A stretch of DNA of 62,112 bases, filler included, from a bacterium (GCA_043817485.1; 7 parts of 7 records of this genome joined end to end with filler, not necessarily neighbours in it); one strand, 5' to 3'; positions 17,041-44,442 are shown, numbered from the whole stretch's first letter. The notes: a model not told the origin generated them from the sequence alone. Made by a program: numbers and translations.

Positions 17041-17140
17041 NNNNNNNNNNNNNNNNNNNNNNNNNNNNNNNNNNNNNNNNNNNNTTAATTAATTAANNNN
17101 NNNNNNNNNNNNNNNNNNNNNNNNNNNNNNNNNNNNNNNN
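17041..17140. other. Artificial contig linker
   Basis: N-TTAATTAATTAA-N. Confidence 0.98.
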
Positions 17141-17141
17141 T

Positions 17142-17507
17142 ATTTTTTCTTTATTATTATGTGGATTTTGTATAGGAATTTTACAAGGACTAATGGGTGT
17201 TGGTGGTGGCTTTATATTAGTTCCTATTCTAATATATATATTTCATATACCTGCAGCAATTGTTATAGGAACAAGTTTATTTATTATCTGTCCATCAAGT
17301 GCTTTTGGTTCAATAAGTCATATTCTTAAAGGTAATGTTAATTTTATCTTGGTTTTATTAATTCTTTCTGGCTCTATTTTAGGAAGTTTTATTGGCTCTC
17401 AATTAACAGAAAAAATAAGAGGCAAAAAAATTCGTTTCTATTTTATATTTATAATTTTAGTTGGGATAATTATGGTACTTATAAAAATGTTATCTCAATT
17501 AAAATAG
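17142..17507 (+). CDS. TauE/SafE sulfite-exporter family protein, C-terminal part (5' cut by contig end)
   Basis: GLMGVGGGFILVP, GTSL, GSFIGS. Confidence 0.85.
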   Translation: MFSLLLCGFCIGILQGLMGVGGGFILVPILIYIFHIPAAIVIGTSLFIICPSSAFGSISHILKGNVNFILVLLILSGSILGSFIGSQLTEKIRGKKIRFYFIFIILVGIIMVLIKMLSQLK

Positions 17508-17575
17508 TAATATTATATTTTAAAATTGAAATAGTTTGTTGCTTATTATTCGTAAAAAGTTGAAGGAGAAAAAAT

Positions 17576-19060
17576 ATGCCAAATAAAAATGTTATTTTAA
17601 TAACATCTGACCAATTTCGTTGGGATGTTCTTGGTTGTTGTGGGAATAAAGCTATTAAGACTCCTAATTTTGATAAATTAGCAAAACAAGGAGTTATTTT
17701 TACAAATGCTATGAGTTCAAACCCTATTTGTGTTCCTGCAAGAGCAACTATTACAACTGGAAATCATTCTCATAAATGTACTGGGTTTAAATCAAATAGT
17801 GGGAGAATTAAGGATGACCAGATAAAAATAGCAGAATATTTCAATAAATTTGGTTATGAAACATATGCTATGGGGAAACTTCATTATGTGCCTTATTTAA
17901 AAAATCGTTTAGTACATGGTTTTAAAAACTGGTAAATGACAGAATCAGGAAGAATTTTATGGCAAGAGGAATTAACAGGTAAAGATTTAGGTGGAGAAGA
18001 TTATCATTCTTACCTTAAAAAAGTGGGTTTTGAAAATATGGCTCGAGCACATGGAATTGGTAATAATGATGTAAGAGCCACTATATCTCCTGTTCCATTT
18101 GAACATTATGTTGATGTATGGATAATGAACAGGTCTTTATTTTATCTAAAAGAACATTTAAAAAGATATGCTAATAAACCATTCTTTATTTGGATATCTT
18201 TTCCAAAACCACATTCTCCTTATGACTCTCCAGAACCATACCATAAAATGTATAATCCTAAAGAAATTCCAGAACCTTTTGGTAGTATAGATAAACTTGA
18301 AAATAGAAATCCAGAACTTAAATTAAGACCTAATAAATATGGCTGGAATTTACTGTCAAAAGAAGCAATTCAATTATCTCGTGCTAGATACTATAGTTTA
18401 GTAAGTCTTCAGGATTATGTTATAGGAGAACTTCTTAAGTTTTTAAAAGAATATAATTTAAAAAATAATTCTTCTATACTTTTTACTGCTGACCATGGAG
18501 ATATGTTAGGCGATTTTGATCTTTTTTTTAAAGGATTATTACTTAATGGTTCTGTTCGTGTGCCTTTTATAATTTCTTCTCCTTTTTTGAAAAACAATGG
18601 AATTAAACTGGAGCATCTTGTAGGATTAGAAGATGTTTTACCAACCCTTTGTGAATTAGGTGATATTCCTATTCCAGAAAATATTGAAGGTAAAAGTGTA
18701 TTACCTACTATTATAGAATCTAAAAAGAATTTACGAGAAATTTATATTTCTCAATGTCAGGAAGAGCCAAATCAATTATATATGGCATTTGATGGTAAGT
18801 TTAAATATTGTTATGCAGAATGGCATGGAATTGAAGAATTGTATGATTTAAAAAATGATCCTAATGAATTACATAATTTATCCAAAGATAAAAGATATAG
18901 AAACAAACTTTCAGATTTTAAAGATGCTGTTATAGAATGGTGTAAGAAAAATAATGATTATAAAATGTTAAATGAAAAAGGAAAACTTAAAATTTCGGAT
19001 CCAAATTCAAATTTATTTATTAAAGAAACTGCAAAAGTAATGGGTTGGCGTAAATATTAA
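17576..19060 (+). pseudogene. Arylsulfatase-family hydrolase interrupted by one in-frame TAA (17933-17935)
   Basis: SDQFR, CVPARAT, GKLH in first ORF; KPHSPYD, TADHG, ELYDLKNDP in second; same frame. Confidence 0.8.
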
Positions 19061-19162
19061 TTTTAAAAAAAATATAATTAGAATCAGTAAAAAATGCTAA
19101 AGAAAAATGTGAAAAAATAATAAAGCCAAATTTATATTTATAAATTTTATTTTCAATAAATA

Positions 19163-19867
19163 TTAAAGGAGTTTTTTATTTGATATTGAAATTGATTTGT
19201 AAGAAATTATTTTATCTTTAATCGCTTCTATTAAATTAACTATATCCTTTTTATTTTTCACAGATGTTTTAAATATTTTAGCTTTTGGATTTATTTTTTC
19301 TATATTTTTCTCAACTTGCTTAATATTATATTTAAAATATGGAAGTAAATCTGTTTTGGTTATTAAAACCATATCACTATTATAAAATATGGGTGGATAT
19401 TTACTAACTTTATCATCACCTTCAGAAATAGAAGTTATGGAAATTCTTAAATTTTCCCCTAAATCAAATTCAGCTGGACAGACAAGATTTCCTATATTTT
19501 CAATAAACAATATATCTATATTGCTTTGTTTTAATGATTTAAAAGCTAATGAAATCATTCTGGAATTAAGATGACAAGCATTTCCAATATTGTCAGTATT
19601 TATCTGCACAACAGGAATTCCAATTTTTTTGATTCTACAAGCATCTTTATCAGTGGAAAGATCGCCTTCTATTACTGCTATTTTGAAAGTTTTTTTCATC
19701 AATTTTATAAGAGATTCAAGAATAGTTGTTTTTCCACAACCAGGTGATCCCATTATATTTATAACAAAAATATTTTTATCTTTGAACAATTTTCTATTTT
19801 TTTTAGCATCTTTTTCATTTACTTCTAATATATTTTTTGATAAAATAATTTTTTCCATTTGTATCAT
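19163..19867 (-). CDS. hypB: Hydrogenase nickel-insertion GTPase
   Basis: GSPGCGKTT, EGD, ACHL, ENIGNLVCPAEFDLGE, TKTDL. Confidence 0.95.
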   Translation of the reverse strand: MIQMEKIILSKNILEVNEKDAKKNRKLFKDKNIFVINIMGSPGCGKTTILESLIKLMKKTFKIAVIEGDLSTDKDACRIKKIGIPVVQINTDNIGNACHLNSRMISLAFKSLKQSNIDILFIENIGNLVCPAEFDLGENLRISITSISEGDDKVSKYPPIFYNSDMVLITKTDLLPYFKYNIKQVEKNIEKINPKAKIFKTSVKNKKDIVNLIEAIKDKIISYKSISISNKKLL

Positions 19868-19888
19868 ATTAATTCCTTTTTAATATTA

Positions 19889-19908
19889 TGCAGACCATAT
19901 AGTCTGCA
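19889..19908. other. Small hairpin between hypA and hypB
   Basis: TGCAGAC-catata-GTCTGCA. Confidence 0.35.
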
Positions 19909-19910
19909 AT

Positions 19911-20261
19911 TTAATTGTATTCTACACTATCTATAAGAAGTTCATTTCCACATAATAAATTCAAATTTGTACTTCCGCATTTTTTACACAAAAAGTGTAT
20001 GTTAAAAGTATTATTAAAAGTTATATTATTTTTACATTCATTGCATTTCATTTTAACAGGAATAATTTTTATTATTAATTTTGTATTTTCATACTTAGTT
20101 TTTTTTGATAAAATTTCAAACGCAAAATTTAAAGATTCAGGCATAATTGTTTTTAAAATTCCTATTTTTAAATTTATTTTTTTTATTTCAGATATTTTTT
20201 CTTTTTTACATTTTTTATTTAGTATATTTATTAAGCTTTTAACTATTGAAAATTCATGCAA
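19911..20261 (-). CDS. hypA: Hydrogenase nickel chaperone
   Basis: MHE N-terminus, CNEC and CKKCGS, GNEL. Confidence 0.95.
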   Translation of the reverse strand: MHEFSIVKSLINILNKKCKKEKISEIKKINLKIGILKTIMPESLNFAFEILSKKTKYENTKLIIKIIPVKMKCNECKNNITFNNTFNIHFLCKKCGSTNLNLLCGNELLIDSVEYN

Positions 20262-20419
20262 ACTATTCTCCCTCTATATTAAATTTAGCCTTTTAAGTTA
20301 AAAGTATTTGTTTTCAGAATATTAACTAATTTTTTATTTTGAATTCTCACTTTTATGAAAACAAGGGATAGGACAATTACTTTTTTAAAAAAATTACACA
20401 AATTCTATTTTACAGAAGT

Positions 20420-21601
20420 TTAATTAATTCCTAAATCAGTTGGTGCTCTACCAATTGAATATAATAAATCAAGAACATATTTAATTCTTGTTTTTACATT
20501 TTCATTTGCACATACTCGTTCTGGATAAATTTCATAGAGTTCCTTGTATTTTTTGGGAGTTACGTTTATCATAAGAGAATTTGCTCCTGCCATTAATCCA
20601 TTTTTTGCCCCATTATTTTTGTCTATAGTTTCCATAGCAGTGGTTACTACTATTTTACTTTCTGGATATAATATTCTTGTTCTTGCAATTGTATTTAAGC
20701 ACTGTTCTATACTTGGAGTTTTTTCAATAGCAAGTGGAGTATCTTTATGCGGAATAAATGGACCAAAAGAAAACATTTCTGTTTGAAGTTCTGCAGTAAG
20801 ATGTATATCATTTATTATATTATCTTCTGTCTGATCAGGTAACCCAAATAAAAAACCAGTAAGTACAAGAAATCCCATTTTATTTAATTTTTTTATAATG
20901 TTTATTCTATTTTCTAATTTAAAACCAGGTTTTAATTTTTCATATAATTTTTTTTTGCTTGTTTCAAAACGCATAAGCACACCTCTTGCACCTTCATTAT
21001 ATATTTTTTCATATGTAGATATGTCTCTTTCTCCTATGCTTACAACAAGAAGCGTATTGCTTTTTACTCTTATTTTTTTTATTATATTAACAAGTATTTC
21101 ATCTGTATACCAATCATCTTCTCCTGATTGTAATACAAGAGCTTTAAATCCTAATGCATTAACAGCGTAATTTGCAGCAAAAATAATTTCATCCACTGTC
21201 ATTCTATATCTTTTTATATTTTTATTACTTTTTCTTATTCCACAATATAAACAATCATTTTTACAATAATTAGAAAATTCTATTATACCGTGAACACAAC
21301 ATGAATTTCCTGAATGCTGTTGTCTTACTGAATTTGCAATTTGATACAATGTTTTTGGTTCTTGTGCAAGCCTTAAATCAGTTTCTTTTAACTTCAAAAA
21401 AATTTCTTTCCATGTTTTAAGTAATTCCAATGCCTTTTTTTCAGGCACTTTGCTTATAACAAAACCTCCTTGAGCATAAACATATTCACCAGAATTTACT
21501 TCAAAAAATTCATTTCTGGCTTTTCTTAATTCTCCAAAGTAATCAACAATAACAAATTTGCCATTTACTTCTTTTATTTTTCCTGGGATTGAATAGCACA
21601 T
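20420..21601 (-). CDS. Fusion: N-terminal HypC-like domain + HydE-like radical SAM
   Basis: MCYSIPGKI..VDY.G..GEYVYAQGGFVI (HypC pattern); IEFSNYCKNDCLYCGIR, LQSGED, RFETS, GPFIPHKDTPL, AGANSLM.NVTP..Y..LYEIY (HydE pattern). Confidence 0.85.
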   Translation of the reverse strand: MCYSIPGKIKEVNGKFVIVDYFGELRKARNEFFEVNSGEYVYAQGGFVISKVPEKKALELLKTWKEIFLKLKETDLRLAQEPKTLYQIANSVRQQHSGNSCCVHGIIEFSNYCKNDCLYCGIRKSNKNIKRYRMTVDEIIFAANYAVNALGFKALVLQSGEDDWYTDEILVNIIKKIRVKSNTLLVVSIGERDISTYEKIYNEGARGVLMRFETSKKKLYEKLKPGFKLENRINIIKKLNKMGFLVLTGFLFGLPDQTEDNIINDIHLTAELQTEMFSFGPFIPHKDTPLAIEKTPSIEQCLNTIARTRILYPESKIVVTTAMETIDKNNGAKNGLMAGANSLMINVTPKKYKELYEIYPERVCANENVKTRIKYVLDLLYSIGRAPTDLGIN

Positions 21602-21607
21602 GTTTTT

Positions 21608-22996
21608 TTAGATAGATATATCTTTAATGAATATATCTATGCTTCCTTTTTTAATTTTTTTTAAGTATTTTTTTGTTTTATTTGCTATAATAGGATTATC
21701 TATTTTTTCAAGATAATAATTTATAATTTCATAACCCTTTTGGTACAATTTTGGAGATGCAAAATTTTCAAGATATTCAGCAAAAGTTAAAAGTCCATTA
21801 GGTCTGCAAAATTTATGAATTTCACCAGATTTGGAAAGTTTCATAAAATCCTTACCTATTCTACCTGTGCGATAACATGCAGTACAAAAGCTTGGAAGAA
21901 GTTTGTCGTTCAATACATCAAAAATAATTTCTTCTACTTTTCTTTTATCATTAATAACAAATTGAACTCTATCATCTTTTTTTCCATAACCATCTGTAAC
22001 TGTTACTGAACCTGCTGATGTTTGAGAAATACCTATTTTAAAAGCTATTTTTCTTATGTTAGGAGTTTCTCTTGTACTTATAATAAGTCCAGTATAAGGT
22101 ATGGCTAATCTTAAAATAGCAATAAGTTTTAAAAAATCTTGATCCGAAACAAGATATTTAGGTTTATATTTAACTGATGGAGCAGAACAAAATCTAGGAA
22201 CAGATATAGTATGAGGTCCTATTTCACTGATTTTGTCCATATATTGAGCATGTGAAACAAGTCCAAGTATTTCAAATCTCCAGTCATAAAGTCCAAATAA
22301 AACTCCTAACCCTCTGTCATCAAGTCCTGCTTCTAAAGCTCTATTATGAGCTGTAATTTGCCTATTATAATCAGATTTTGGTCCTTTATGTAGTTTTTCG
22401 TATGTTTGGCGATGATAAGTTTCTTGAAATAATTGATAAGTTCCTATATTTGTCTTTTTCAATTTTTTGTAATTATCTACTGTAGTAGCGGCGATATTTA
22501 CATTTATCCTTCTTATATTTCCTTTTTTTGTTTTTACTGAGTATATTGTATCAATAACTTGAACAACATAATCAATATCATTTACTTTTGGATCTTCTCC
22601 AAATTCAAGAAGTACTCTTTTATGCCCCATATTTATAAGTATTTCCACTTGTTTTTTTACTTGCTCAATGGTGATTTTTTTTCTTTTCAATTCCATATTA
22701 CTTATGTGGAAATTACAATATTCACAATCATTTACACAAAAATCAGAAACATAAAGCGGAGCAAAAAGCACTAATCTTTCACCATAAATTTCATTTTTTA
22801 TTTTTGCTGCTACTTCAAAAAGTGCTTGTTCTAATTCCGGTATTTTTAAATTTACCAGATATCCAACATCTTTAAGATTTAATCCTTTTTTGTCTTTTGC
22901 TTTATTTAAAATATCATTTATAATTTCTTTTGAAGGATTTTCAGTTTTTTTTAATAACTCATTTATTTTTAATTCATCAATTATATTTTGATTCAT
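21608..22996 (-). CDS. hydG: [FeFe]-hydrogenase maturase HydG
   Basis: FAPLY, CVNDCEYC, FQETY, GPHTISVPR, STRE, PSFCTACYR-x-FCRPN (Cx2Cx22C). Confidence 0.93.
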   Translation of the reverse strand: MNQNIIDELKINELLKKTENPSKEIINDILNKAKDKKGLNLKDVGYLVNLKIPELEQALFEVAAKIKNEIYGERLVLFAPLYVSDFCVNDCEYCNFHISNMELKRKKITIEQVKKQVEILINMGHKRVLLEFGEDPKVNDIDYVVQVIDTIYSVKTKKGNIRRINVNIAATTVDNYKKLKKTNIGTYQLFQETYHRQTYEKLHKGPKSDYNRQITAHNRALEAGLDDRGLGVLFGLYDWRFEILGLVSHAQYMDKISEIGPHTISVPRFCSAPSVKYKPKYLVSDQDFLKLIAILRLAIPYTGLIISTRETPNIRKIAFKIGISQTSAGSVTVTDGYGKKDDRVQFVINDKRKVEEIIFDVLNDKLLPSFCTACYRTGRIGKDFMKLSKSGEIHKFCRPNGLLTFAEYLENFASPKLYQKGYEIINYYLEKIDNPIIANKTKKYLKKIKKGSIDIFIKDISI

Positions 22997-23006
22997 ATAT
23001 TTTTAT

Positions 23007-23471
23007 TTATTTTTTTTGAAAATTAGAAATAAGTAATTCTACTTTTTTTACCATATTAGGAATTTTTTGTTTTATTAAGTTTGTTAAATTCAAACCAAAT
23101 TCTGTATTAGACGGTTCAATCCCAACAACCATAATATTATACTCATGATTTATTTCAAAAGCAATTTTTAACGTTTCATGAAGAGCCAATCCGTGTGTTG
23201 TAACTCCAGAATCAGCATTTATAAAATTTACATTTTTGGGATTAAATACCTTAATAGTTCCTGGTTTTTTATTCATTTTAACAGCATCTATAATTATAAT
23301 AAATTCATAATCAAAATATTTGATAACATCAAGTCCTGATATATTTTTACATATAAATCTTACATTAGCAAATGTATTTTTTTTTTCAAGATATTCTACT
23401 ACATGTATTCCAATAGCATCATCTTTTCTAAAAATATTTCCTACTCCAATAACAGATATGCCTTTTTTCAT
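23007..23471 (-). CDS. Hydrogenase maturation endopeptidase (HyaD/HycI family)
   Basis: GVGNIFRKDDAIG, IIDAV, THG, GIEP. Confidence 0.92.
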   Translation of the reverse strand: MKKGISVIGVGNIFRKDDAIGIHVVEYLEKKNTFANVRFICKNISGLDVIKYFDYEFIIIIDAVKMNKKPGTIKVFNPKNVNFINADSGVTTHGLALHETLKIAFEINHEYNIMVVGIEPSNTEFGLNLTNLIKQKIPNMVKKVELLISNFQKK

Positions 23472-23474
23472 TTA

Positions 23475-24809
23475 TTAAACAAATTCAACATTAAGATAAT
23501 GACATGAGCAAGAAATACACGGATCATAAGCTCTAATAAGCATTTCTGCTTGAATTGTTATTTCTTCTTTTGACTTATTTAAAATTTCTGGAATCATTTT
23601 TTTCAAATCCATATCGATATTTGCTAAATTTTGGTTTGTTGGAATTACACAATTTGCTTTTTCTATAAGTCCTTTGGTGTCTATTGTATAATCGTGGAAT
23701 AAAATACCCCTTGGTACTTCTACTGCACCAACACCTTTTCCAGGTTTTATTTTAAATGTTTTTTGTTCTTCTATTGTTGGCCAACTTGATACTGCTTCAT
23801 TTGCATTTATTCCATTTATAAGAAAATCTTCTATTATGGAAAGTGTGTCTCTTAAGCAATAAGCAGTTTCTACAACTTGAGCAATAGTATTCATAAATGG
23901 ATTATAACATGGAGATTGTAATCCTAAAGAATCAGCTAAATCAAGTTCTTTTTTTGAAAGTTTTTTATGATTAATATTAAACCTTGCTAAAGATCCTACC
24001 ATATATGAATTTTTTTTATTTTTTGAATGTTTTGAAGTGGAATGTTCTACATAAAATTCATGAACAAAATTAAGATAATCTTTTGGATGGATTACTCCTT
24101 CTTCAGATGAAGCAATATTTCCATCAAGAAAAGCATATTCATCAGAATGTGTTAATGCAATATATTCTGTTTTTCTTTCAAAAGATGGAAGTTTTAAAGT
24201 TTTAACAATTCCAATAACAGTATCTAAATCTTTTTCAAGATTTAGAAGCAATTTTTTCATTTTTTCAAGTTCTTTTTTGGTTGGTATTTTTGTAAAACCT
24301 CTAACACATAAAGTAATAGGATGTGTATGTCTGCCTAATAATAAATCACATAAATCACTACATATTTTTTTCATTTTCAAAGCAAGGATTACAATATCAG
24401 GATGAGTTTTAATAAGCGGAAATACACTTTCTACTCCAAGACAATCAGGTGCAACAAGAAAAAGTACATGAAGTAAATGGCTGTCTAATGTTTCAAGATG
24501 CAATGCAACCTTTCTTAATTTTTTAGTTTGTTCAGTAGGACTAAATCCTATGGCATCTTCTGTTGCTTTTATGGATGCAAGACTATGTCCTGTAGAGCAA
24601 ATACCACATATTCTCGATGTAATATGTTGTACTTCAAACATTGACCTGCCTTTTACCATCACTTCAAAAAATCTCGGAGCTTCTATTACATTTAGATGAC
24701 ATTCTTCAAGTTTGCCGTTTTTTATATTAATTTTAATGTTTCCATGTCCTTCAACTCTTGTAAGATATTCTACATTTATATTTAAATCTTTTTTAAGTTC
24801 CTGACTCAT
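23475..24809 (-). CDS. Group 3b [NiFe]-hydrogenase large (alpha) subunit
   Basis: TRVEGHG, L1 RICGICS, EVPRG, L2 DPCISCSCH plus cleavable tail YLNVEFV; ATG 24809 with GGAGG. Confidence 0.95.
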   Translation of the reverse strand: MSQELKKDLNINVEYLTRVEGHGNIKINIKNGKLEECHLNVIEAPRFFEVMVKGRSMFEVQHITSRICGICSTGHSLASIKATEDAIGFSPTEQTKKLRKVALHLETLDSHLLHVLFLVAPDCLGVESVFPLIKTHPDIVILALKMKKICSDLCDLLLGRHTHPITLCVRGFTKIPTKKELEKMKKLLLNLEKDLDTVIGIVKTLKLPSFERKTEYIALTHSDEYAFLDGNIASSEEGVIHPKDYLNFVHEFYVEHSTSKHSKNKKNSYMVGSLARFNINHKKLSKKELDLADSLGLQSPCYNPFMNTIAQVVETAYCLRDTLSIIEDFLINGINANEAVSSWPTIEEQKTFKIKPGKGVGAVEVPRGILFHDYTIDTKGLIEKANCVIPTNQNLANIDMDLKKMIPEILNKSKEEITIQAEMLIRAYDPCISCSCHYLNVEFV

Positions 24810-25566
24810 TCTTTTCCTCCATCCACATTTTAACTCCTTCATAAATATTGAATTTATCTTTAAGCATTTCTAATGTGAAACCATATTTTTTAAGTATATC
24901 TATTTGTCCTTGTTTATTATAATCTTCAAGTAGTCCTCTGCAATTATAGCATGTATTTCCATTAGACGGACACCATGCATCACATCCGGCTCTAGTTACA
25001 GGACCCATACAAACTTGACCTTTTTCAAATAAACATACATTTTCTTTTAATTTGCATTCAACACAAACAGCATGAGTTGGAATTTTATATGGTACGCCTG
25101 TTAAAAGTCCTTTTAATACTAATGCAAATTCATTGTTATTTGTAGGACATCCATGTACATATGCATCTACTTTAACAACTTGGTCTACTGGTTTAATAGA
25201 GCCTGTTTCTATTTTATCTTTTCTTCCTGGATAAACAATTTCTAATGCATTTTCTATATTATGTTTTTTAATTATTCCATTAATTCCACCTGTACAAGCA
25301 CATGCACCATAAGCTACAAGTATTTTTGCTTTATTTCTTATATCTTTTATTCTTTCTTCATCATGTAGTCTTATTATGGCTCCTTCTATTATTGCAACAT
25401 CATAATTTTCTGACCTTTCATGCATAACTTCTCTAAAATTTACTATGTCAATATGTTCAAGAATATCAAGAAGAGCAGTGTTTAAATAAGTTAATTGAAG
25501 TTGACAACCTTCACAATCTGAAAAATCAAAAAATGCAACTCTAACTTTTTTTTTTATTTCAATCAT
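24793..25566 (-). CDS. Group 3b hydrogenase small (delta) subunit
   Basis: CEGC, GACA, GCP, VCVEC..C..CMGPVTRAGC..CP..CYNCRG. Confidence 0.93.
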   Translation of the reverse strand: MIEIKKKVRVAFFDFSDCEGCQLQLTYLNTALLDILEHIDIVNFREVMHERSENYDVAIIEGAIIRLHDEERIKDIRNKAKILVAYGACACTGGINGIIKKHNIENALEIVYPGRKDKIETGSIKPVDQVVKVDAYVHGCPTNNNEFALVLKGLLTGVPYKIPTHAVCVECKLKENVCLFEKGQVCMGPVTRAGCDAWCPSNGNTCYNCRGLLEDYNKQGQIDILKKYGFTLEMLKDKFNIYEGVKMWMEEKNESGT

Positions 25567-26414
25567 ATTGCTCCTTCTATTTCTTTAATTTTATCGTAAG
25601 AAAATACCGGTCCATCTTGACAACAGTAATAATTATTTATTTGACAATGTCCACATTTTCCAAGTCCACATTTCATATGTCTTTCAAGAGAAAGAAAAAT
25701 TTGATTGTCTGGAATTTTTTTTTCCATAAGCTTAATAATTACAAATTTATACATAATAGGTGGACCACATATTATACAATAAGTTTGTTTTATATCTATA
25801 TCAACTTTGGGAATTAGTTCTGTAATTAATCCTATATTTCCTTTCCAATCAGGAGCAGTTTTATCAACTGTGCATTGAAAATGAATATCTGTGAGTTTTT
25901 CCCATTTTTCTATTTCATCAGTATATAAAAGCTGTTTTGGTTCTTTACAACCAAGGAGTATAACAACTTTACCAAAATCTTTTCTTTTATCTAACACAAA
26001 ATTAATTAATGACCTTAACGGTGCTATTCCAAGTCCTCCAGCTATAAATAATAAATCTTTTCCCTTTAATTCATCAACAGGAAATCCATGTCCAAATGGA
26101 CCTCTTATTCCTATTTTATCTCCTTCTTTTAAGGTATGTAAAACTGATGTAAAATTACCTGCTTTTCTTACACAAATCTCAAAAAATCCCTTTTGAGTAG
26201 GAGAGGAAGAAATAGAGATAGGAGCTTCTCCAACTCCAAATATGGATATTTCAGCAAATTGTCCAGGGGAATGTTCAAGGTTTTTGTTCTCTTCTAATTC
26301 AATTTTAAACCATTTTTCCATAGCAGTCATTTGTTTTATATCAGTAATGATTCCTATTTTTGGAATATAAAGAGATTCCATATTTTTGTATTTTTCTGTT
26401 ATTATATTATTCAT
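25563..26414 (-). CDS. Group 3b hydrogenase gamma subunit (FAD/NAD(P), 2Fe-2S; AsrB-like)
   Basis: PGQF, RGPFG, AGGLGIAPLRS, CGPPIM, ERHMKCGLGKCGHC..CQDGPVF. Confidence 0.93.
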   Translation of the reverse strand: MNNIITEKYKNMESLYIPKIGIITDIKQMTAMEKWFKIELEENKNLEHSPGQFAEISIFGVGEAPISISSSPTQKGFFEICVRKAGNFTSVLHTLKEGDKIGIRGPFGHGFPVDELKGKDLLFIAGGLGIAPLRSLINFVLDKRKDFGKVVILLGCKEPKQLLYTDEIEKWEKLTDIHFQCTVDKTAPDWKGNIGLITELIPKVDIDIKQTYCIICGPPIMYKFVIIKLMEKKIPDNQIFLSLERHMKCGLGKCGHCQINNYYCCQDGPVFSYDKIKEIEGAI

Positions 26415-27448
26415 ATATTTTCCTTTGCTAAAGAGTTAATAGTTTCATATAAATTAATTTTTGCCATACAAGCTCTTGTACAACGTCCACAACCTACACA
26501 AAAATTTCTATTATATTTTTCAACACAATATAAAAATTTTCTGAAAAATCTATGTTGTTGTCGACTTTTTCTTTCTTCTCTGAAATTTTCACCACCAGCA
26601 ACTTCAGCAAAATTTTTCAATTGACATGAATCCCATGTTCTGTATCTTTTTCCTTCTTTTAAATTTAATTCAATGTCATCTTTTACATCAAAACAATAAC
26701 AAGTTGGACATACATTTGTACAATTACCACAGGATACACATTTTTTTCCGATTTCATCCCATAATGTATTTTTTTTTGTTTTACTTAATATTTTTCCTAT
26801 TTCATCATGATTTGGGATAAGATTTTTTTTCCATTTTTCATCTTTTTCCTGTCTATTTTTACTTAATTTATATTCAATGTCTGAAATATCTTTAAAAACA
26901 AATTTATAATTGTTAACAAGATTTTCGCCTTCAGGCGAATTAATCTGAATAGCATATTCTTCCCCAATATCAGTAAGCATAAGGTCATATCCACCCTTTG
27001 GATTATTGGTTCCCATAGTAATGCAGGTTGCATGTTCATCACATGGTTCAAGACATTCAATGCCTATTATTATAATATTTTTTTTTCTTTTAAAAAAAGT
27101 TTTATCAATAGGATTTACTCCACATGCATTATCAAGACATAATATTCCTGCAATATCACATGTATGAGCACCGAAAATAATTAAAGGAGTTTGATCTATA
27201 TTCGATGTTTCTGCTTTTATATTTTCAATTTTAAAAGAAAATAAAGTTTCTTCTTGTGGAAGATAATATTTTTTCAAAGAAAGAATTGGAGGTTTGTGAA
27301 GAAGAATAAGTTCTTCAGGCGAATCAAGAAAATTTATTACATATTGATTTTCTTTTCTTGTTGGACCTGCTATTCTGTACTTGTTTTTTAGAGATTCAAA
27401 CAAATTTTTTATTTTTTGTTTTTCTATAGTATAGTATTTCATAAACAC
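26411..27448 (-). CDS. Group 3b hydrogenase beta subunit (4Fe-4S dicluster; AsrA-like)
   Basis: CVSCGNCTNVCPTCYC, WDSC, CVGCGRCTRAC. Confidence 0.93.
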   Translation of the reverse strand: MFMKYYTIEKQKIKNLFESLKNKYRIAGPTRKENQYVINFLDSPEELILLHKPPILSLKKYYLPQEETLFSFKIENIKAETSNIDQTPLIIFGAHTCDIAGILCLDNACGVNPIDKTFFKRKKNIIIIGIECLEPCDEHATCITMGTNNPKGGYDLMLTDIGEEYAIQINSPEGENLVNNYKFVFKDISDIEYKLSKNRQEKDEKWKKNLIPNHDEIGKILSKTKKNTLWDEIGKKCVSCGNCTNVCPTCYCFDVKDDIELNLKEGKRYRTWDSCQLKNFAEVAGGENFREERKSRQQHRFFRKFLYCVEKYNRNFCVGCGRCTRACMAKINLYETINSLAKENI

Positions 27449-27469
27449 CTTTCACCTTTCACCTTAAAT

Positions 27470-28354
27470 TTATTTTGGGAATGTTTTGTTTTCCTTTTTT
27501 TCTGTGTCTTTTACATAAGTGGTCCAATAAAATAATCCTACAAAAATTGCTCCACCAATAATATTTCCAATTGTTACTGGAATTAAGTTATTTACAAAAA
27601 ACCCTTTCCATGTTAATTTTACTAAATCTAAACCATCAGTTACTAAAGCAGAACCTTTTAAGAAAATTCCTAATGGAATAAAATACATATTAGCAATAGA
27701 GTGCTCAAAACCTAATGCTGCAAATGTCATTATGGGAAAAAATATAGCAAATATTTTTCCTATAACTTGTCTTGAAGCAAGAGCCATCCATATAGCTAAA
27801 CACACAAGCCAATTACATAAAATACCACGAGTTAAACATTCTGTAAAAGTTAATCCAACCTTTGTATTAGCTATTTTAACTGCACTAAGACCTACTGCCA
27901 TATCTCCCATTTTCCAAAGATTTGTTTTATAATAAAGAGCAGCTAAAAGCATAGCACCAATAAAATTAGCTATATAAACAATCATCCATTTATAAAGCAT
28001 TTTTTCAAATCTTAATTTTTTATCTGCTACACTCATTAACATTAAGGTATTGCCAGTAAAAAGTTCTGCACCGCAAATTACTACAAGCATAAGTCCTACA
28101 GAGAATAAAGCACCAGTTATAAATCTTGCTAAACCTAATCCTAAATATTTTGCAACATCATGACCACCTAAAGTCGAAATGCAACCTCCGAAACCAATGT
28201 AAGCACCAGCTAAAATTCCTAAAATAATTATTTTAGCATCAATCATCATTGCTTTTTGTATGCCTACAGTTCTTGTAAGTGTTTCTGCAACAATAGCACC
28301 AGTACGACAATCTACATTTACTACTGGTATTATTGCTGGTTGTTGTTTTTCCAT
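27470..28354 (-). CDS. Formate/nitrite transporter (FNT) family channel
   Basis: LAGAYI, GAELFTGN, LCNWLVC, GFEHSIANM, GNIIGG. Confidence 0.93.
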   Translation of the reverse strand: MEKQQPAIIPVVNVDCRTGAIVAETLTRTVGIQKAMMIDAKIIILGILAGAYIGFGGCISTLGGHDVAKYLGLGLARFITGALFSVGLMLVVICGAELFTGNTLMLMSVADKKLRFEKMLYKWMIVYIANFIGAMLLAALYYKTNLWKMGDMAVGLSAVKIANTKVGLTFTECLTRGILCNWLVCLAIWMALASRQVIGKIFAIFFPIMTFAALGFEHSIANMYFIPLGIFLKGSALVTDGLDLVKLTWKGFFVNNLIPVTIGNIIGGAIFVGLFYWTTYVKDTEKKENKTFPK

Positions 28355-28376
28355 GCTTTTTACTCTTTTCTTTTTT

Positions 28377-28409
28377 TTGTGATAAATATCACTGTGATAT
28401 TTATCACTG
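28377..28409. promoter_or_regulatory. Two overlapping Rex-type operators upstream of the FNT-hydrogenase operon
   Basis: TTGTGATAAATATCACTG and CTGTGATATTTATCACTG; together a 29-bp palindrome GTGATAAATATCAC-t-GTGATATTTATCAC; resembles TTGTGA-N6-TCACAA. Confidence 0.8.
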
Positions 28410-28426
28410 GTTAAAATAAAAAAAAT

Positions 28427-29053
28427 TTATTTTACTACTGAAAAATAACGAAGTGCTTTAATTTCAATTGTTAAATCTACATTTCGTAATGTAATTTCTT
28501 TAGGAACATTTAAAACTACAGGTGCAAAATTTAAAATACTAAAAACACCAGATTCAATTAATTTATCTGCAATCATTTGAGCATTATCATATGAAACAGC
28601 GATAATTCCAATATGAATATTATTTTTTTTAACACTTTCTTTAATATTACTTATATCTTCTACTATAATATTTCCACATAATTTTCCAATTTTATTTTTA
28701 TCTTGATCAAATGCAGCTACGAATTTCAAACCTTCTTGTTCAAATCCTTTATAATTTAAAAGAGCAGATCCTAAATTACCTACACCTACAATAGCAAGAT
28801 TACACATTTTTTTTGCATTAATAATATCTAACAAGTATTTTTTTAAATTTAATACATTGTATCCTTTTCCTGGTTGTCCAAATTTCCCAAAATTAGCTAA
28901 ATCTTTTCTAATTTGAAAAGCATTAATATTTGTTATTTCAGCAAGTTCTTCAGATGAAATATTTATTTTTTCTTGTTCAATTTGTTGAACAATTCTTAAA
29001 TATTGTAAAATTCTTGGAATAACTATTTCAGAAATTTTTTTCTCTTCTAACAT
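28427..29053 (-). CDS. rex: Redox-sensing transcriptional repressor Rex
   Basis: ISSEELA, QIRKDLANFG..G.PGKGY, VGVGNLG, ILNFAP. Confidence 0.95.
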   Translation of the reverse strand: MLEEKKISEIVIPRILQYLRIVQQIEQEKINISSEELAEITNINAFQIRKDLANFGKFGQPGKGYNVLNLKKYLLDIINAKKMCNLAIVGVGNLGSALLNYKGFEQEGLKFVAAFDQDKNKIGKLCGNIIVEDISNIKESVKKNNIHIGIIAVSYDNAQMIADKLIESGVFSILNFAPVVLNVPKEITLRNVDLTIEIKALRYFSVVK

Positions 29054-29076
29054 TTATTTATTCCTTTTTTAAAAAT

Positions 29077-29113
29077 TTGTGATAAATATTACAATTCAAT
29101 AAAAATATGTCAA
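29077..29113 (-). promoter_or_regulatory. rex promoter with Rex box over the -10 element
   Basis: Minus-strand TTGACA (29113-29108), 16 nt, TAATAT; TTGTGATAAATATTACAA at 29077-29094. Confidence 0.75.
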
Positions 29114-29137
29114 GATTTTTTTAAAAATTGTGAAAAA

Positions 29138-30004
29138 TTAAAATATTATTTCTTCTTGTCTTAAAGCATAACAAGAAAAATTTACTGCTACTGGTAAGCC
29201 AGCAATATGAGTAGGAAAAACTTCTATATTAACTCCTAAACAAGTTGTATCTCCACCTATTCCCTGAGGACCTATATTGAGTTCATTAATTTCATTATAA
29301 AGTTCTTCTTCTAATTTTTTTATATGCTTTAAAGGATTAGAAGAATTTAAAGGGCGAAGTAAAGCTTTTTTAGATAAAAAAGCTGCATATTCCATAGTCC
29401 CACCAATGCCAATTCCTAATATAATGGGTGGACAAGGAGAAGCTCCAGCATCTTTAACTGTTTGAATTACAAAATCCTTTATTCCTTGTGTTTCTTGTGA
29501 AGGATTTAATAAAGCAATTTTACTCATATTTTCTGCTCCAAATCCTTTTGGTAAAAGAGTAATTTTAATTTTATCACCCAACACTTGCTCAATATGAATA
29601 ACTGCAGGAGTATTATCGCCAGTATTAATTCTAATTAAAGGATCATTTACAACAGATTTTCTTAAATATCCTTTTATATAGCCCTTTTTTACTCCTTGAT
29701 TTATTGCTTGAGAAATATTTCCTTTTATATACACATTTTCACCTATTTCAACAAATACTGTCATCATTCCAGTATCTTGACATACTGGCATTTTTTCTTT
29801 TTTGGCTAAAGAAATATTTTCTAAAATCATTTCTAAAACTTCTTTTGCTTTTATATTTTTTTCTTTTTTATAAGATTTTTTTAAAGATAAAACTACATCT
29901 TTTCTGATTGAAATATTTGCTTCAATACACTTATTAGATATAGAATCTATTAAATCAATAGCTTTAATTTTTCGAAATGACTTCATATTATTCCTTTTTA
30001 TCAT
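29138..30004 (-). CDS. Fe-S fumarate hydratase / tartrate dehydratase alpha subunit
   Basis: PVCQDTG, NTGDNTPA, KGFGAENMS, PCPP, HIAGLPVAVN.SC. Confidence 0.9.
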   Translation of the reverse strand: MIKRNNMKSFRKIKAIDLIDSISNKCIEANISIRKDVVLSLKKSYKKEKNIKAKEVLEMILENISLAKKEKMPVCQDTGMMTVFVEIGENVYIKGNISQAINQGVKKGYIKGYLRKSVVNDPLIRINTGDNTPAVIHIEQVLGDKIKITLLPKGFGAENMSKIALLNPSQETQGIKDFVIQTVKDAGASPCPPIILGIGIGGTMEYAAFLSKKALLRPLNSSNPLKHIKKLEEELYNEINELNIGPQGIGGDTTCLGVNIEVFPTHIAGLPVAVNFSCYALRQEEIIF

Positions 30005-30088
30005 TTGTTATTGCAAATCTATAGACAAAATAATACAAATTGTTTTATTTCGTTCATAATGATATTATAATAGACATTTTACTAAATT

Positions 30089-31363
30089 TTAAAAAGAAGT
30101 TTTTTTGTTTTTTATCATTTTGCTTAATTCAACAATCCATAAAGAAATACTTGATAATATAATAACAAATATCCAATCAATAAAATTAAGTGATTCTACT
30201 TTAAAAATGGATTTAGTAAATCCAAAACAAACAATTCCTATTTGAAGTAAAGCAGAACCTAAAACTGCATATACTAAATTTTTATTTGTTAAAAATCCAA
30301 GTTTAAATATTGATAAGGTATTGCTTCTACAATTAAATGCATGAAATAATTGTGATCCTGAAAGAACCATAAAAACCATTGTTCTTGCTTTAATTAAAGT
30401 TCCTTTTTCAATAAATAAAATATATCCAAATATCAATAAAGCAGATATTGACATCATTAACCCTAAAATAGATATTTTAATAATAATTTTTTTATTAATA
30501 AATTTTTTTTTAAATTGTTCTGCTGACTTAAACATTAACCCAGGTTCTGCTTTTTCTACTCCAAGTGCAAGTGCTGGCAATCCATCTGTTATAAGATTTA
30601 TCCAAAGTATTTGAATTGGTAAAAGTGGAATTGGCCAACCTAAAATAGAAGAGAAAAACAATAAAAAAAGTTCTCCTATATTACAAGAAAGTAAGTAAAA
30701 AATAAATTTTTTAATATTTTCATATATATTTCTTCCTTCTTCAACTGCTGAAACAATTGATGCAAAATTATCATCTGTAATAACTATATCTGCTGCTTCT
30801 TTTGTTACATCTGTTCCAGTTATTCCCATAGCAATACCTATGTCTGCTTCTTTTAAAGCTGGTGCATCATTGACACCATCACCAGTCATTGCAATTATAG
30901 CATTTCTTTTTTTCCATGCTTTAATAATTCTAAGTTTATGTTCTGCTGAAACTCTTGTAAAAATTTCTATTTTATCTATTTTACAAGCAAGTTCTTCATC
31001 TGATATTTCATCAAGTTCTGTTCCAGTAATAGCAATATAATCTTTTCCTATCATATTAAGTTCTTTTGCTATAGCAATAGCTGTATTTTTATGATCACCA
31101 GTAATCATAACACTTTTAATTCCAGCACTTTTACACAAAGCAAGAGCATTTTTTACTTCTTTTCTAGGGGGATCTATCATTCCTAACATTCCTACAAAAA
31201 TTAAATCTTTTTCAATATCTTCAAATTTATAGTTATGAGGAATTTTATCTAAATAACGAAAACCAAAAGAAAGCATTCTAAGTGAATCATTTGCAAGATT
31301 TTCATTAACTAAACTAATTTTTTCTTTATCTTTTTCTTTAAATGTTTCAATTTTATCGTTATT
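30089..31363 (-). CDS. P-type cation (Ca2+-type) ATPase, C-terminal part (cut by contig end)
   Basis: DPPR, MITGD, TGDGVNDAPAL, QILWINLITDGLPALAL. Confidence 0.93.
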   Translation of the reverse strand, partial: NNDKIETFKEKDKEKISLVNENLANDSLRMLSFGFRYLDKIPHNYKFEDIEKDLIFVGMLGMIDPPRKEVKNALALCKSAGIKSVMITGDHKNTAIAIAKELNMIGKDYIAITGTELDEISDEELACKIDKIEIFTRVSAEHKLRIIKAWKKRNAIIAMTGDGVNDAPALKEADIGIAMGITGTDVTKEAADIVITDDNFASIVSAVEEGRNIYENIKKFIFYLLSCNIGELFLLFFSSILGWPIPLLPIQILWINLITDGLPALALGVEKAEPGLMFKSAEQFKKKFINKKIIIKISILGLMMSISALLIFGYILFIEKGTLIKARTMVFMVLSGSQLFHAFNCRSNTLSIFKLGFLTNKNLVYAVLGSALLQIGIVCFGFTKSIFKVESLNFIDWIFVIILSSISLWIVELSKMIKNKKTSF

Positions 31364-31463
31364 NNNNNNNNNNNNNNNNNNNNNNNNNNNNNNNNNNNNN
31401 NNNNNNNTTAATTAATTAANNNNNNNNNNNNNNNNNNNNNNNNNNNNNNNNNNNNNNNNNNNN
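31364..31463. other. Artificial contig linker
   Basis: N-TTAATTAATTAA-N. Confidence 0.98.
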
Positions 31464-34056: not shown

Positions 34057-34156
34057 NNNNNNNNNNNNNNNNNNNNNNNNNNNNNNNNNNNNNNNNNNNN
34101 TTAATTAATTAANNNNNNNNNNNNNNNNNNNNNNNNNNNNNNNNNNNNNNNNNNNN
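34057..34156. other. Artificial contig linker
   Basis: N-TTAATTAATTAA-N. Confidence 0.98.
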
Positions 34157-39240: not shown

Positions 39241-39340
39241 NNNNNNNNNNNNNNNNNNNNNNNNNNNNNNNNNNNNNNNNNNNNTTAATTAATTAANNNN
39301 NNNNNNNNNNNNNNNNNNNNNNNNNNNNNNNNNNNNNNNN
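39241..39340. other. Artificial contig linker
   Basis: N-TTAATTAATTAA-N. Confidence 0.98.
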
Positions 39341-44342: not shown

Positions 44343-44442
44343 NNNNNNNNNNNNNNNNNNNNNNNNNNNNNNNNNNNNNNNNNNNNTTAATTAATTAANN
44401 NNNNNNNNNNNNNNNNNNNNNNNNNNNNNNNNNNNNNNNNNN
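44343..44442. other. Artificial contig linker
   Basis: N-TTAATTAATTAA-N. Confidence 0.98.

Follow-up and report, generated by a model that had tools for sequence, protein, structure and literature searches.

Maturation of the [NiFe] hydrogenases depends in the textbook view in every case on HypC, HypD, HypE, and HypF, and the cyanide ligands of the metal center derive from carbamoyl phosphate. The [FeFe] hydrogenases use the HydE/HydF/HydG system with HydF as the scaffold and HydA as the target. An operon that carries components of both systems is located on the minus strand of a stretch of 62,112 nucleotides of bacterial DNA (GCA_043817485.1), which was analyzed at its full length and is "the window" in the following. 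An earlier note on this DNA had read the gene order as beta-gamma-delta-alpha-protease-hydG-hypC::hydE-hypA-hypB, and all nine assignments were confirmed by Pfam and NCBIfam profiles and by their motifs. The cluster points to an undescribed way of building the [NiFe] metal center. With a probability of about 0.7, the Fe-CO-CN unit would be built and handed over by HydG and the HypC::HydE fusion protein in place of HypCDEF.

The operon shares with the Hyp system HypA, HypB, a HypC-type domain with its essential Cys2, a C-terminal endopeptidase, and a large subunit with both CxxC pairs and a cleavable tail. It differs from this system by the absence of HypD, HypE, and HypF from the open reading frames (ORFs) of at least 300 amino acids in the window and from 37 of 38 related genomes, and by a HypC domain that is fused to a radical S-adenosylmethionine (SAM) enzyme and possesses a glutamine in place of the histidine at the HypD interface. 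Shared with the HydE/HydF/HydG system are a HydG whose score, length, and two cluster motifs are all canonical, and a HydE domain with the SAM motif and with M224, M291, R159, L157, and V105 in the numbering of T. maritima HydE. In contrast to this second system, the HydF scaffold was found in none and the HydA target in 3 of the 38 genomes with the fusion, both were absent from the five nearest relatives, R54, R155, T134, G226, and A267 of HydE are changed, a Cys-x-His pair has been gained, and HypC has been fused. HmdB, which resembles HydE and has been connected to the cofactor of [Fe]-hydrogenase, is a radical SAM enzyme of the HydE type used outside [FeFe] maturation, but the fusion reached only 84.3 bits with the corresponding model TIGR03957, the cut-off of which is 320.9 bits.

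The closest published mention concerns "Ca. [quoted passage not shown] Both operons contain protease, HypA, HypB, and the fusion, there also in a reduced anaerobic bacterium, but the Centrionella operon harbors an ankyrin gene that is absent here. The preprint terms the set "full maturation machinery," and the words "hydg" and "hypd" occur zero times in its main text (10.64898/2026.04.11.717937). A 2024 survey of archaeal [FeFe] hydrogenases in Cell looked for HydE, HydF, and HydG among the archaea and describes sets that are incomplete, with no mention of HypC or HypD in the main text (PMC11216029). Beyond the passing mention of the fusion in the 2026 preprint, no published description of the pathway was found in the literature covered, which did not include subscription journals, so that an earlier description may exist.

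The HypC::HydE fusion and its residue changes

The fusion protein matched the HypC family PF01455 with 47.2 bits (cut-off 28.5) at residues 1 to 64 and the HydE model TIGR03956 with 278 bits (cut-off 254.6) at residues 79 to 381. It starts with MCYSIPG and contains the SAM cluster motif CKNDCLYC (CX3CX2C). When compared with solved structures, the HydE part gave 247 bits with T. maritima HydE (PDB 3cix) and the HypC part an E value of 1.4e-13 with T. kodakarensis HypC (PDB 2z1c). An AlphaFold2 model built from 25 family members, with a predicted local distance difference test (pLDDT) value of 90.3 and a predicted template modeling (pTM) score of 0.90, displayed a HypC beta-barrel at residues 1 to 52, a single long helix at residues 54 to 79, and then the radical SAM barrel. 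A predicted complex of the large subunit with residues 1 to 80 of the HypC domain reached a score of 0.11, the mark being 0.32.

A scan with the fusion as the query, using one genome per species, yielded 80 loci, and in 36 of them the match began at query residue 1. These 36 loci were from records titled Planctomycetota, Elusimicrobiota, Margulisiibacteriota, several phyla of the candidate phyla radiation (CPR), Woesearchaeota, "Methanosarcinales" metagenome-assembled genomes (MAGs), and an unclassified archaeon. Among the best 120 matches in the protein database, taken from clusters of 90% identity and 58 to 72% identical to the query, all 120 contained PF01455 together with PF04055; the database entries go by "[FeFe] hydrogenase H-cluster radical SAM maturase HydE," "radical SAM protein," or "biotin synthase." One match, from Omnitrophota, is situated on a contig of 2.16 Mb. 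In a tree calculated from the HydE domain only (90 rows, quick IQ-TREE run, model LG+G4, with the Shimodaira-Hasegawa approximate likelihood ratio test [SH-aLRT] as the sole support measure), a branch with 100% SH-aLRT support parted 40 unfused rows from 50 other rows. The N terminus MC..[ILMV]P was present in 47 of these 50 rows, and the remaining three were a mis-called start (L009), a sequence cut by a contig end (L045), and an unclear case (L028). The fusion is thus a large family of single origin that forms one HydE clade, and not an accident. One genome, G012 with locus L012, is flagged as unpublished; it accounts for a single genome among the 38 and a single row of the tree, and none of the claims depends on it alone.

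Positions were mapped to T. maritima HydE by alignment, and the 50 rows of the fused clade were compared with the 40 unfused rows. Arginine 54, present in all 40 unfused rows, was histidine in 50 of 50 fused ones, and R155, again arginine in 40 of 40, was replaced by glycine (46 rows) or alanine (4 rows). T134 (Thr in 37 of 40 unfused rows) was changed to Phe in 35, Ile in 6, and Val in 4 fused rows, G226 (Gly in 40 of 40) to Ser in 47 and Thr in 3, and A267 (Ala in 36 of 40) to Val in 47. Position 52 was occupied by cysteine in 50 of 50 fused rows and by Tyr (32), His (6), or Phe (2), but never by Cys, in the 40 unfused rows. The residues M224, M291, L157, V105, R159, and T269 were kept in both groups; M224 and M291 correspond to M276 and M344 of the protein from the window and were methionine in 49 and 48 of the 50 fused rows, respectively.

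Evaluation of these changes needs to consider the function that has been calculated for the same residues. In a quantum mechanics/molecular mechanics (QM/MM) study of T. maritima HydE, as far as its accessible text goes, two Fe(I)(CO)2(CN)(SH) units are bound to M291 and M224 and dimerize in a small cavity, while R54, T134, R155, and T269 are in contact with the CN ligands of both irons prior to dimerization (PMC11826987). In the fusion, Cys2, Cys102, and His104 are invariant within the clade. The pair Cys102-x-His104 is positioned on a modeled beta-strand of residues 100 to 110, and since both residues are two positions apart on this strand, they should face the same side. Loss of both arginines of the dimer pocket and gain of Cys102 and His104 suggest a mono-iron product held by Cys and His, and on these sequence grounds it is inferred that the product of the fused HydE stays a single-iron unit.

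The HypC domain was changed at the position of the HypD interface. Although Cys2 and Pro6 were present in 47 of 47 fused proteins, the conserved histidine of HypC aligned to Gln44 in the window, and this column contained Gln in 27, Ala in 10, Thr in 5, Val in 3, and Ile in 2 of the 47 proteins. A histidine at this column was found in 0 of 47, with two proteins carrying a histidine one column earlier. According to the part of the source that was available, this residue (H51 in E. coli, H44 in T. kodakarensis) is located at the HypC-HypD interface, and changing it weakens HypD binding and lowers activity (PMC9002611). Loss of the histidine is in line with a chaperone that has given up its contact with HypD.

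Maturation genes in genomes with the fusion

A first set of 38 genomes was composed of the 36 genomes with a match from residue 1 plus those of L028 and L045; L017 and L034, later seen to be fused, were left out. The genomes of this set were searched in their entirety with hidden Markov models (HMMs), each of which found its family in control genomes carrying it. HypD, HypE, and HypF each exceeded the family cut-off in 1 of 38 genomes, which was the same genome, G017, in all three cases. HydF was found in 0 of 38, HydA in 3 of 38 (G029, G032, and G038), HydG in 25 of 38, and a homologue of the large subunit (E value of at most 1e-10) in 32 of 38. The recovery of HydG and of the large subunit indicates that incompleteness of the genomes does not account for the lack of three Hyp genes in 37 of them. 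Matches of the HydF model in all 38 genomes were rejected as ordinary GTPases because they covered only the GTPase domain (positions about 3 to 180) and reached at most 97 bits at a cut-off of 325. Weak matches of the HypE and HypF models stayed well under their cut-offs and were likewise set aside as domains of the aminoimidazole ribonucleotide (AIR) synthase, acylphosphatase, YrdC, and Kae1 types.

Two patterns were observed in addition. The genomes G008, G010, G011, and G013 (e.g., L083) encode a HypE-like protein of about 355 amino acids with 88 to 103 bits at a cut-off of 251.6, not beside the fusion; their loci fall into the Margulisiibacteriota clade of the HydE tree, and two of them are titled "uncultured bacterium." The CPR-type genomes G029, G032, and G038 (L088 to L091) possess [FeFe] hydrogenase catalytic domains of 280 to 294 bits together with neither HydF nor HydG, a pattern echoing the [FeFe] enzymes without maturases in the accessible part of the archaeal survey (PMC11216029).

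A second set comprised 301 genomes sampled from the phylum of G004, which is Elusimicrobiota by record title. A HydE match was present in 177, HypD in 108, and a large subunit (PF00374) in 117 of the 301 genomes. Eleven were fused: ten as initially typed, which include G042 as confirmed by tblastn, and G198 as newly shown. All 11 had a large subunit and none of them HypD, whereas HypD occurred in 104 of the 106 other genomes with a large subunit, the exceptions being G041 and G251. The Fisher p value of this exclusion was 9e-14, with related genomes treated as independent; an earlier split of 10 versus 107 had given 3e-12. The anti-correlation with hypDEF that the earlier note had proposed to test was found here for HypD. 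In a third set of 381 sampled CPR genomes, a HydE-type match was found in 13, 12 of them with ORFs of the fused length of 424 to 496 amino acids and one (G366) doubtful. HypD was present in 19 genomes of this set and overlapped with the HydE-type match in none, an outcome which is not significant by itself because large subunits were not scored. The five relatives placed nearest in the tree (G051, G140, G106, G110, and G142) made up the fourth set, and HypD, HypE, HypF, HydF, and HydA were each absent from all five. A full hypCDEF set plus hydA and hydF in genomes with the same operon had been named as the finding that speaks against a hybrid radical-SAM pathway; the relatives revealed hypDEF in 1 of 38 and HydF in 0 of 38 genomes. 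Taken with the HypD counts of 1 of 38 and 0 of 11, these genome comparisons support the proposal of such a pathway, as far as gene content can do so.

The association with [NiFe] genes extends beyond the window. Within 8 kb of the fusion, analyzed for 50 loci, many of which are cut by contig ends, genes for the small subunit were found in 22, the large subunit in 20, the beta subunit in 14, and the gamma subunit in 10 loci, and L094 repeats the gene order of the window from beta through the fusion. A second arrangement is displayed by a MAG of the Elusimicrobiaceae (L004:611-12605, plus strand), in which QmoC/HdrA/MvhD/VhuG/VhuA-type genes of group 3c (Hdr/Mvh type) are followed downstream by a FrhD-type protease, HydG, the fusion, HypA, and a Mrp/ApbC-type ATPase in the place of HypB. 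This pairing with a 3c hydrogenase indicates that the module serves more than one group-3 enzyme. The neighborhood search found no further conserved maturation gene of unknown function near the fusion; the recurring small proteins were a short endopeptidase of about 125 amino acids and a HypA of 85 amino acids. As a separate observation, the large subunit stops exactly at the histidine of DPCxxCxxH and has no tail in nine loci (L019, L020, L024, L027, L028, L029, L033, L039, and L045). These are mostly titled CPR, and L019, L033, L039, and L045 possess in addition a HypA of 85 to 95 amino acids.

Of the 49 loci that remain when the window is set aside, 24 contain HydG together with the fusion. 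Twenty of these 24 linked HydGs form one clade with 99% support that tracks the fusion, and the other four are archaeal. The protein from the window could be aligned along almost its entire length with the T. italicus enzyme of known structure (PDB 4wcx; 481 bits) and contains the N-terminal CX3CX2C as well as the C-terminal CX2CX22C motif, the latter being kept in 35 of 35 HydGs compared. Fusion-linked and canonical HydGs have 77 invariant columns in common and differ at only 4 clade-specific positions. An invariant histidine, H249 in the window, aligned with a histidine at chain position 266 of 4wcx; depending on the numbering offset, it may correspond to His265 of T. italicus HydG, a ligand of the extra (dangler) iron. 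Three residues downstream, one of the 4 clade-specific positions, residue 252, was Tyr in 88% of the 24 HydGs linked to the fusion, compared to His in all 9 canonical sequences, and this residue may tune the extra-iron site.

HydG and the HydE part both exceed the NCBIfam equivalog cut-offs for [FeFe] maturases, and the databases label the fusion accordingly as "[FeFe] hydrogenase H-cluster radical SAM maturase HydE." Both proteins might serve an [FeFe] hydrogenase encoded elsewhere, with an incidental position in the [NiFe] operon. This is very unlikely: the usual partners of HydG were nearly missing from the fusion genomes (HydA in 3, HydF in 0 of 38) and completely from the five nearest relatives, HydE is fused to a chaperone domain of the [NiFe] system, linkage to [NiFe] subunits recurs across phyla, and the fused clade is devoid of R54 and R155, which are tied to the di-iron product.

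Several observations speak against replacement of HypCDEF by HydG and the fusion. The first comes from ten CPR genomes with the fusion and a large subunit (G018, G020, G024, G026, G029, G030, G031, G032, G037, and G038, with the loci L019, L021, L026, L028, L032, L033, L035, L036, L045, and L057), in which HydG was not found even at an E value of 1e-3. The HydG model matched only the fusion itself there, and HypD, HypE, and HypF were also absent. Because these genomes cluster on the HydE tree, this looks like a real loss in some CPR lines. HydG would then not be a universal partner of the fusion, and another source of CO and CN may exist. Second, the known product of HydG contains two CO and one CN, as does the synthon in the accessible part of the QM/MM study (PMC11826987), but the [NiFe] site contains one CO and two CN. 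Third, the residue roles behind the conclusion that no dimer is formed were taken from a computational study of one enzyme. Fourth, the comparison genomes are all MAGs, for which a completeness of 85% was the search setting and not a reported value, and the Fisher test does not account for the relatedness of the genomes.

The HydG-less CPR genomes, together with the remodeled pocket of the fused clade, could also mean that the radical SAM domain of the fusion has stopped processing a HydG synthon and now acts in a new way on either the large subunit or the iron unit, while CO and CN come from another source and HydG is dispensable or otherwise employed. Such a division of labor is rather unlikely in view of the position of HydG next to the fusion in about half of the loci, the single HydG clade tracking it, and the retention of every cluster motif in HydG and of the Fe(I)-binding methionines and the SAM motif in HydE.

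The remaining two objections concern HypD, HypE, and HypF themselves. The window is only a part of the genome, and the hypDEF genes of this organism could be located on another contig. Moreover, G017 harbors both sets: a hypF-hypE-hypD cluster on contig C194 (L081, L082, and L084) and the fusion at L018. Since this genome contains two large subunits, each maturation route may serve one enzyme. Alternatively, HypD, HypE, and HypF may be encoded elsewhere in this organism, and HydG and HypC::HydE may be accessory proteins, for instance, an anaerobic source of CO for the normal HypCD scaffold; no anaerobic source of CO is known for the Hyp pathway, which adds to the appeal of this explanation. 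It is nevertheless unlikely. The absence of HypD from all but 1 of 38, from 11 of 11, and from 13 of 13 fusion-type genomes contrasts with its presence in 104 of 106 other [NiFe] carriers in the same phylum as the 11, and the HypC domain no longer contains the histidine of the HypD interface.

Setting of the operon

The features of the operon and its surroundings are listed in Table 1. Beta and gamma as well as gamma and delta overlap by 4 nucleotides. The 3 to 10 nucleotides claimed in the earlier note for the gaps from alpha through the fusion were measured as 3, 10, and 6 nucleotides between alpha, protease, HydG, and the fusion. There are 158 nucleotides upstream of hypA and 43 upstream of hypB.

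Table 1. Features on and around the hydrogenase operon, with positions counted from the first letter of the window
Feature	Position	Strand	Characteristics
Hydrogenase beta subunit (4Fe-4S dicluster, ShyB/HydB/AsrA-like)	26411..27448	-	PF17179, 107.8 bits; NF040829 ShyB, 207 bits
Hydrogenase gamma subunit (FAD/NAD(P)-binding, 2Fe-2S)	25563..26414	-	PF00175, PF10418, PF00970; NF006220, 283.7 bits
Hydrogenase delta (small) subunit, NuoB-type	24793..25566	-	PF01058, 89.4 bits; NF040836 sulfhydrogenase HydD, 170.7 bits
[NiFe] large subunit alpha	23475..24842	-	PF00374; best match NF040832, 258.7 bits
Hydrogenase maturation endopeptidase	23007..23471	-	PF01750, 67.9 bits; TIGR00072, 106.1 bits; GNxxxxDD, D, and H motifs
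HydG, radical SAM tyrosine lyase type	21608..22996	-	TIGR03955, 517.9 bits (cut-off 312), profile positions 10-467 of 470
HypC::HydE fusion	20420..21601	-	393 aa; PF01455 and TIGR03956
HypC domain of the fusion	21601-21398	-	residues 1-68
Linker helix of the fusion		-	about residues 54-79
HydE radical SAM barrel of the fusion	21355-20441	-	residues 83-387
HypA nickel metallochaperone	19911..20261	-	PF01155, 107 bits; TTG start
HypB nickel GTPase	19163..19867	-	TIGR00073, 249.7 bits (cut-off 121)
FocA-type formate/nitrite transporter	27470-28354	-	PF01226, 267.7 bits
Rex-type redox repressor	28427-29053	-	PF06971 and PF02629
Convergent sulfatase, split	17576-19060	+	frames of 119 aa and 374 aa; in-frame TAA 17933-17935, ATG immediately after
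Contig of the operon	17141-31363		14,223 bases
Paired N-run junctions	2520-2619, 17041-17140, 31364-31463, 34057-34156, 39241-39340, 44343-44442		two 44-N runs with 12 bases between them
Frame of 500 aa	56185-57687	+	no Pfam match at E 1e-5
Frame of 446 aa	59295-60635	+	no Pfam match at E 1e-5

The subunit domains and the L1/L2 motifs argue for a four-subunit, NAD(P)-linked [NiFe] enzyme of the group-3b type. All four subunits had their best NCBIfam matches with sulfhydrogenase (3b) models, yet far below the equivalog cut-offs; for alpha, the sulfhydrogenase model scored above VhuA (141.7 bits). Alpha contains RICGICSTGH (RxCGxCxxxH) and DPCISCSCH (DPCxxCxxH), followed by a C-terminal tail of 7 residues, and the cysteines and histidines of these motifs were invariant among 16 fusion-linked large subunits. 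HypA possesses two CxxC motifs and, provided that the TTG start codes for Met, an N-terminal MHE. HypB contains the P-loop GSPGCGKT, the CH pair, and ENIGNLVCP.

The operon was said to be bounded by a convergent sulfatase and by fumarase and ATPase genes. Sulfatase and fumarase are present, but the FocA-type and Rex-type genes are situated between beta and fumarase, on the same strand and directly upstream of the hydrogenase genes. Taken as context of the operon, their position hints at redox control by an NADH-sensing repressor and at a link to formate. The ATPase is only a fragment: the P-type ATPase and TauE fragments are at the contig ends, which indicates that they were cut by the contig and not by decay. 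Reassigned stop codons were considered for the truncated neighbors and rejected, since the truncations are contig ends at the N spacers, and TAA, TGA, and TAG each terminate clear genes.

Several contigs were joined in the window, as indicated by six pairs of N runs. Neighborhood across these junctions is thus not real linkage, and the rest of the 62 kb tells little. The claimed absence of hypD, hypE, hypF, hydF, and hydA from the locus was borne out by 22 ORFs of at least 300 amino acids in the window, none of which matched these families; this window-wide absence again tells little because the contigs belong to a larger bin. A scan with Rfam gave no match in the window. The promoter scan predicted 76 sites compared to 73 expected ones, which is uninformative in DNA with a GC content of 25%, and terminator-like matches fell within genes. 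For the isoleucyl-tRNA synthetase (IleRS) in the window, one relative had 82% identity and the next at most 53%.

The sulfatase gene, interrupted by its in-frame stop, may be a pseudogene or a gene in two pieces. If the neighbor is damaged, the hydrogenase cluster itself could be a decaying remnant without an active enzyme. This is hardly credible, because the nine operon genes are all open reading frames with every catalytic and metal-binding motif kept, and the same gene set is conserved at 50 to 70% identity over several phyla.

A candidate radical-SAM route and its meaning

Replacement of HypCDEF by HydG and the fusion would proceed as follows. HydG would split tyrosine by SAM radical chemistry and place CO and CN on the extra iron of its C-terminal cluster, with an Fe-(Cys)-CO-CN synthon as the output. 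The HydE domain may take up this synthon and remove the cysteine by radical chemistry, a role suggested by the conserved SAM cluster motif and by the two methionines that hold Fe(I). With R54 changed to His and R155 to Gly in the dimer pocket, and with an invariant Cys-x-His pair on the same strand, the product should keep only one iron. The HypC domain, which hangs on a helix of about 25 residues, would receive the Fe(CO)x(CN)y unit with its Cys2 and place it into the large subunit. HypA and HypB would then insert nickel, and the endopeptidase would cut off the tail of 7 residues as the last step. The final site could be either Fe(CN)2(CO) or Fe(CO)2(CN).

A broader statement has somewhat better than even odds. 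It holds that HypCDEF is not universal and that a scaffold-free radical-SAM route exists in uncultivated bacteria and archaea, with CO and CN both coming from tyrosine via HydG and with a HypC-tethered variant of HydE converting the synthon to an Fe(CO)x(CN)y unit that contains one iron and is passed directly to the large subunit. The route would span CPR, Elusimicrobiota, Planctomycetota, Omnitrophota, Margulisiibacteriota, and DPANN-type archaea, and it would tie [FeFe] and [NiFe] maturation together by descent. The resulting site may carry CO twice and CN once.

The operon in the window is one member of a widespread, mis-annotated module. Its HydG and HydE are named [FeFe] maturases and the fusion sometimes "biotin synthase," and surveys using these names would credit genomes with an [FeFe] capacity that they lack and treat [NiFe] operons as incomplete; this annotation can now be corrected. 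If the proposed route is true, CO and CN derived from tyrosine would overturn the universal requirement for HypC, HypD, HypE, and HypF, and the question of the anaerobic CO source would be answered for these organisms. The route would also provide a natural experiment on how HydE chemistry can be steered from a di-iron to a mono-iron product, and a compact maturation cassette for heterologous production. With two genes replacing four, it would make clear why CPR bacteria with reduced genomes and archaea of the DPANN type can afford [NiFe] hydrogenases.

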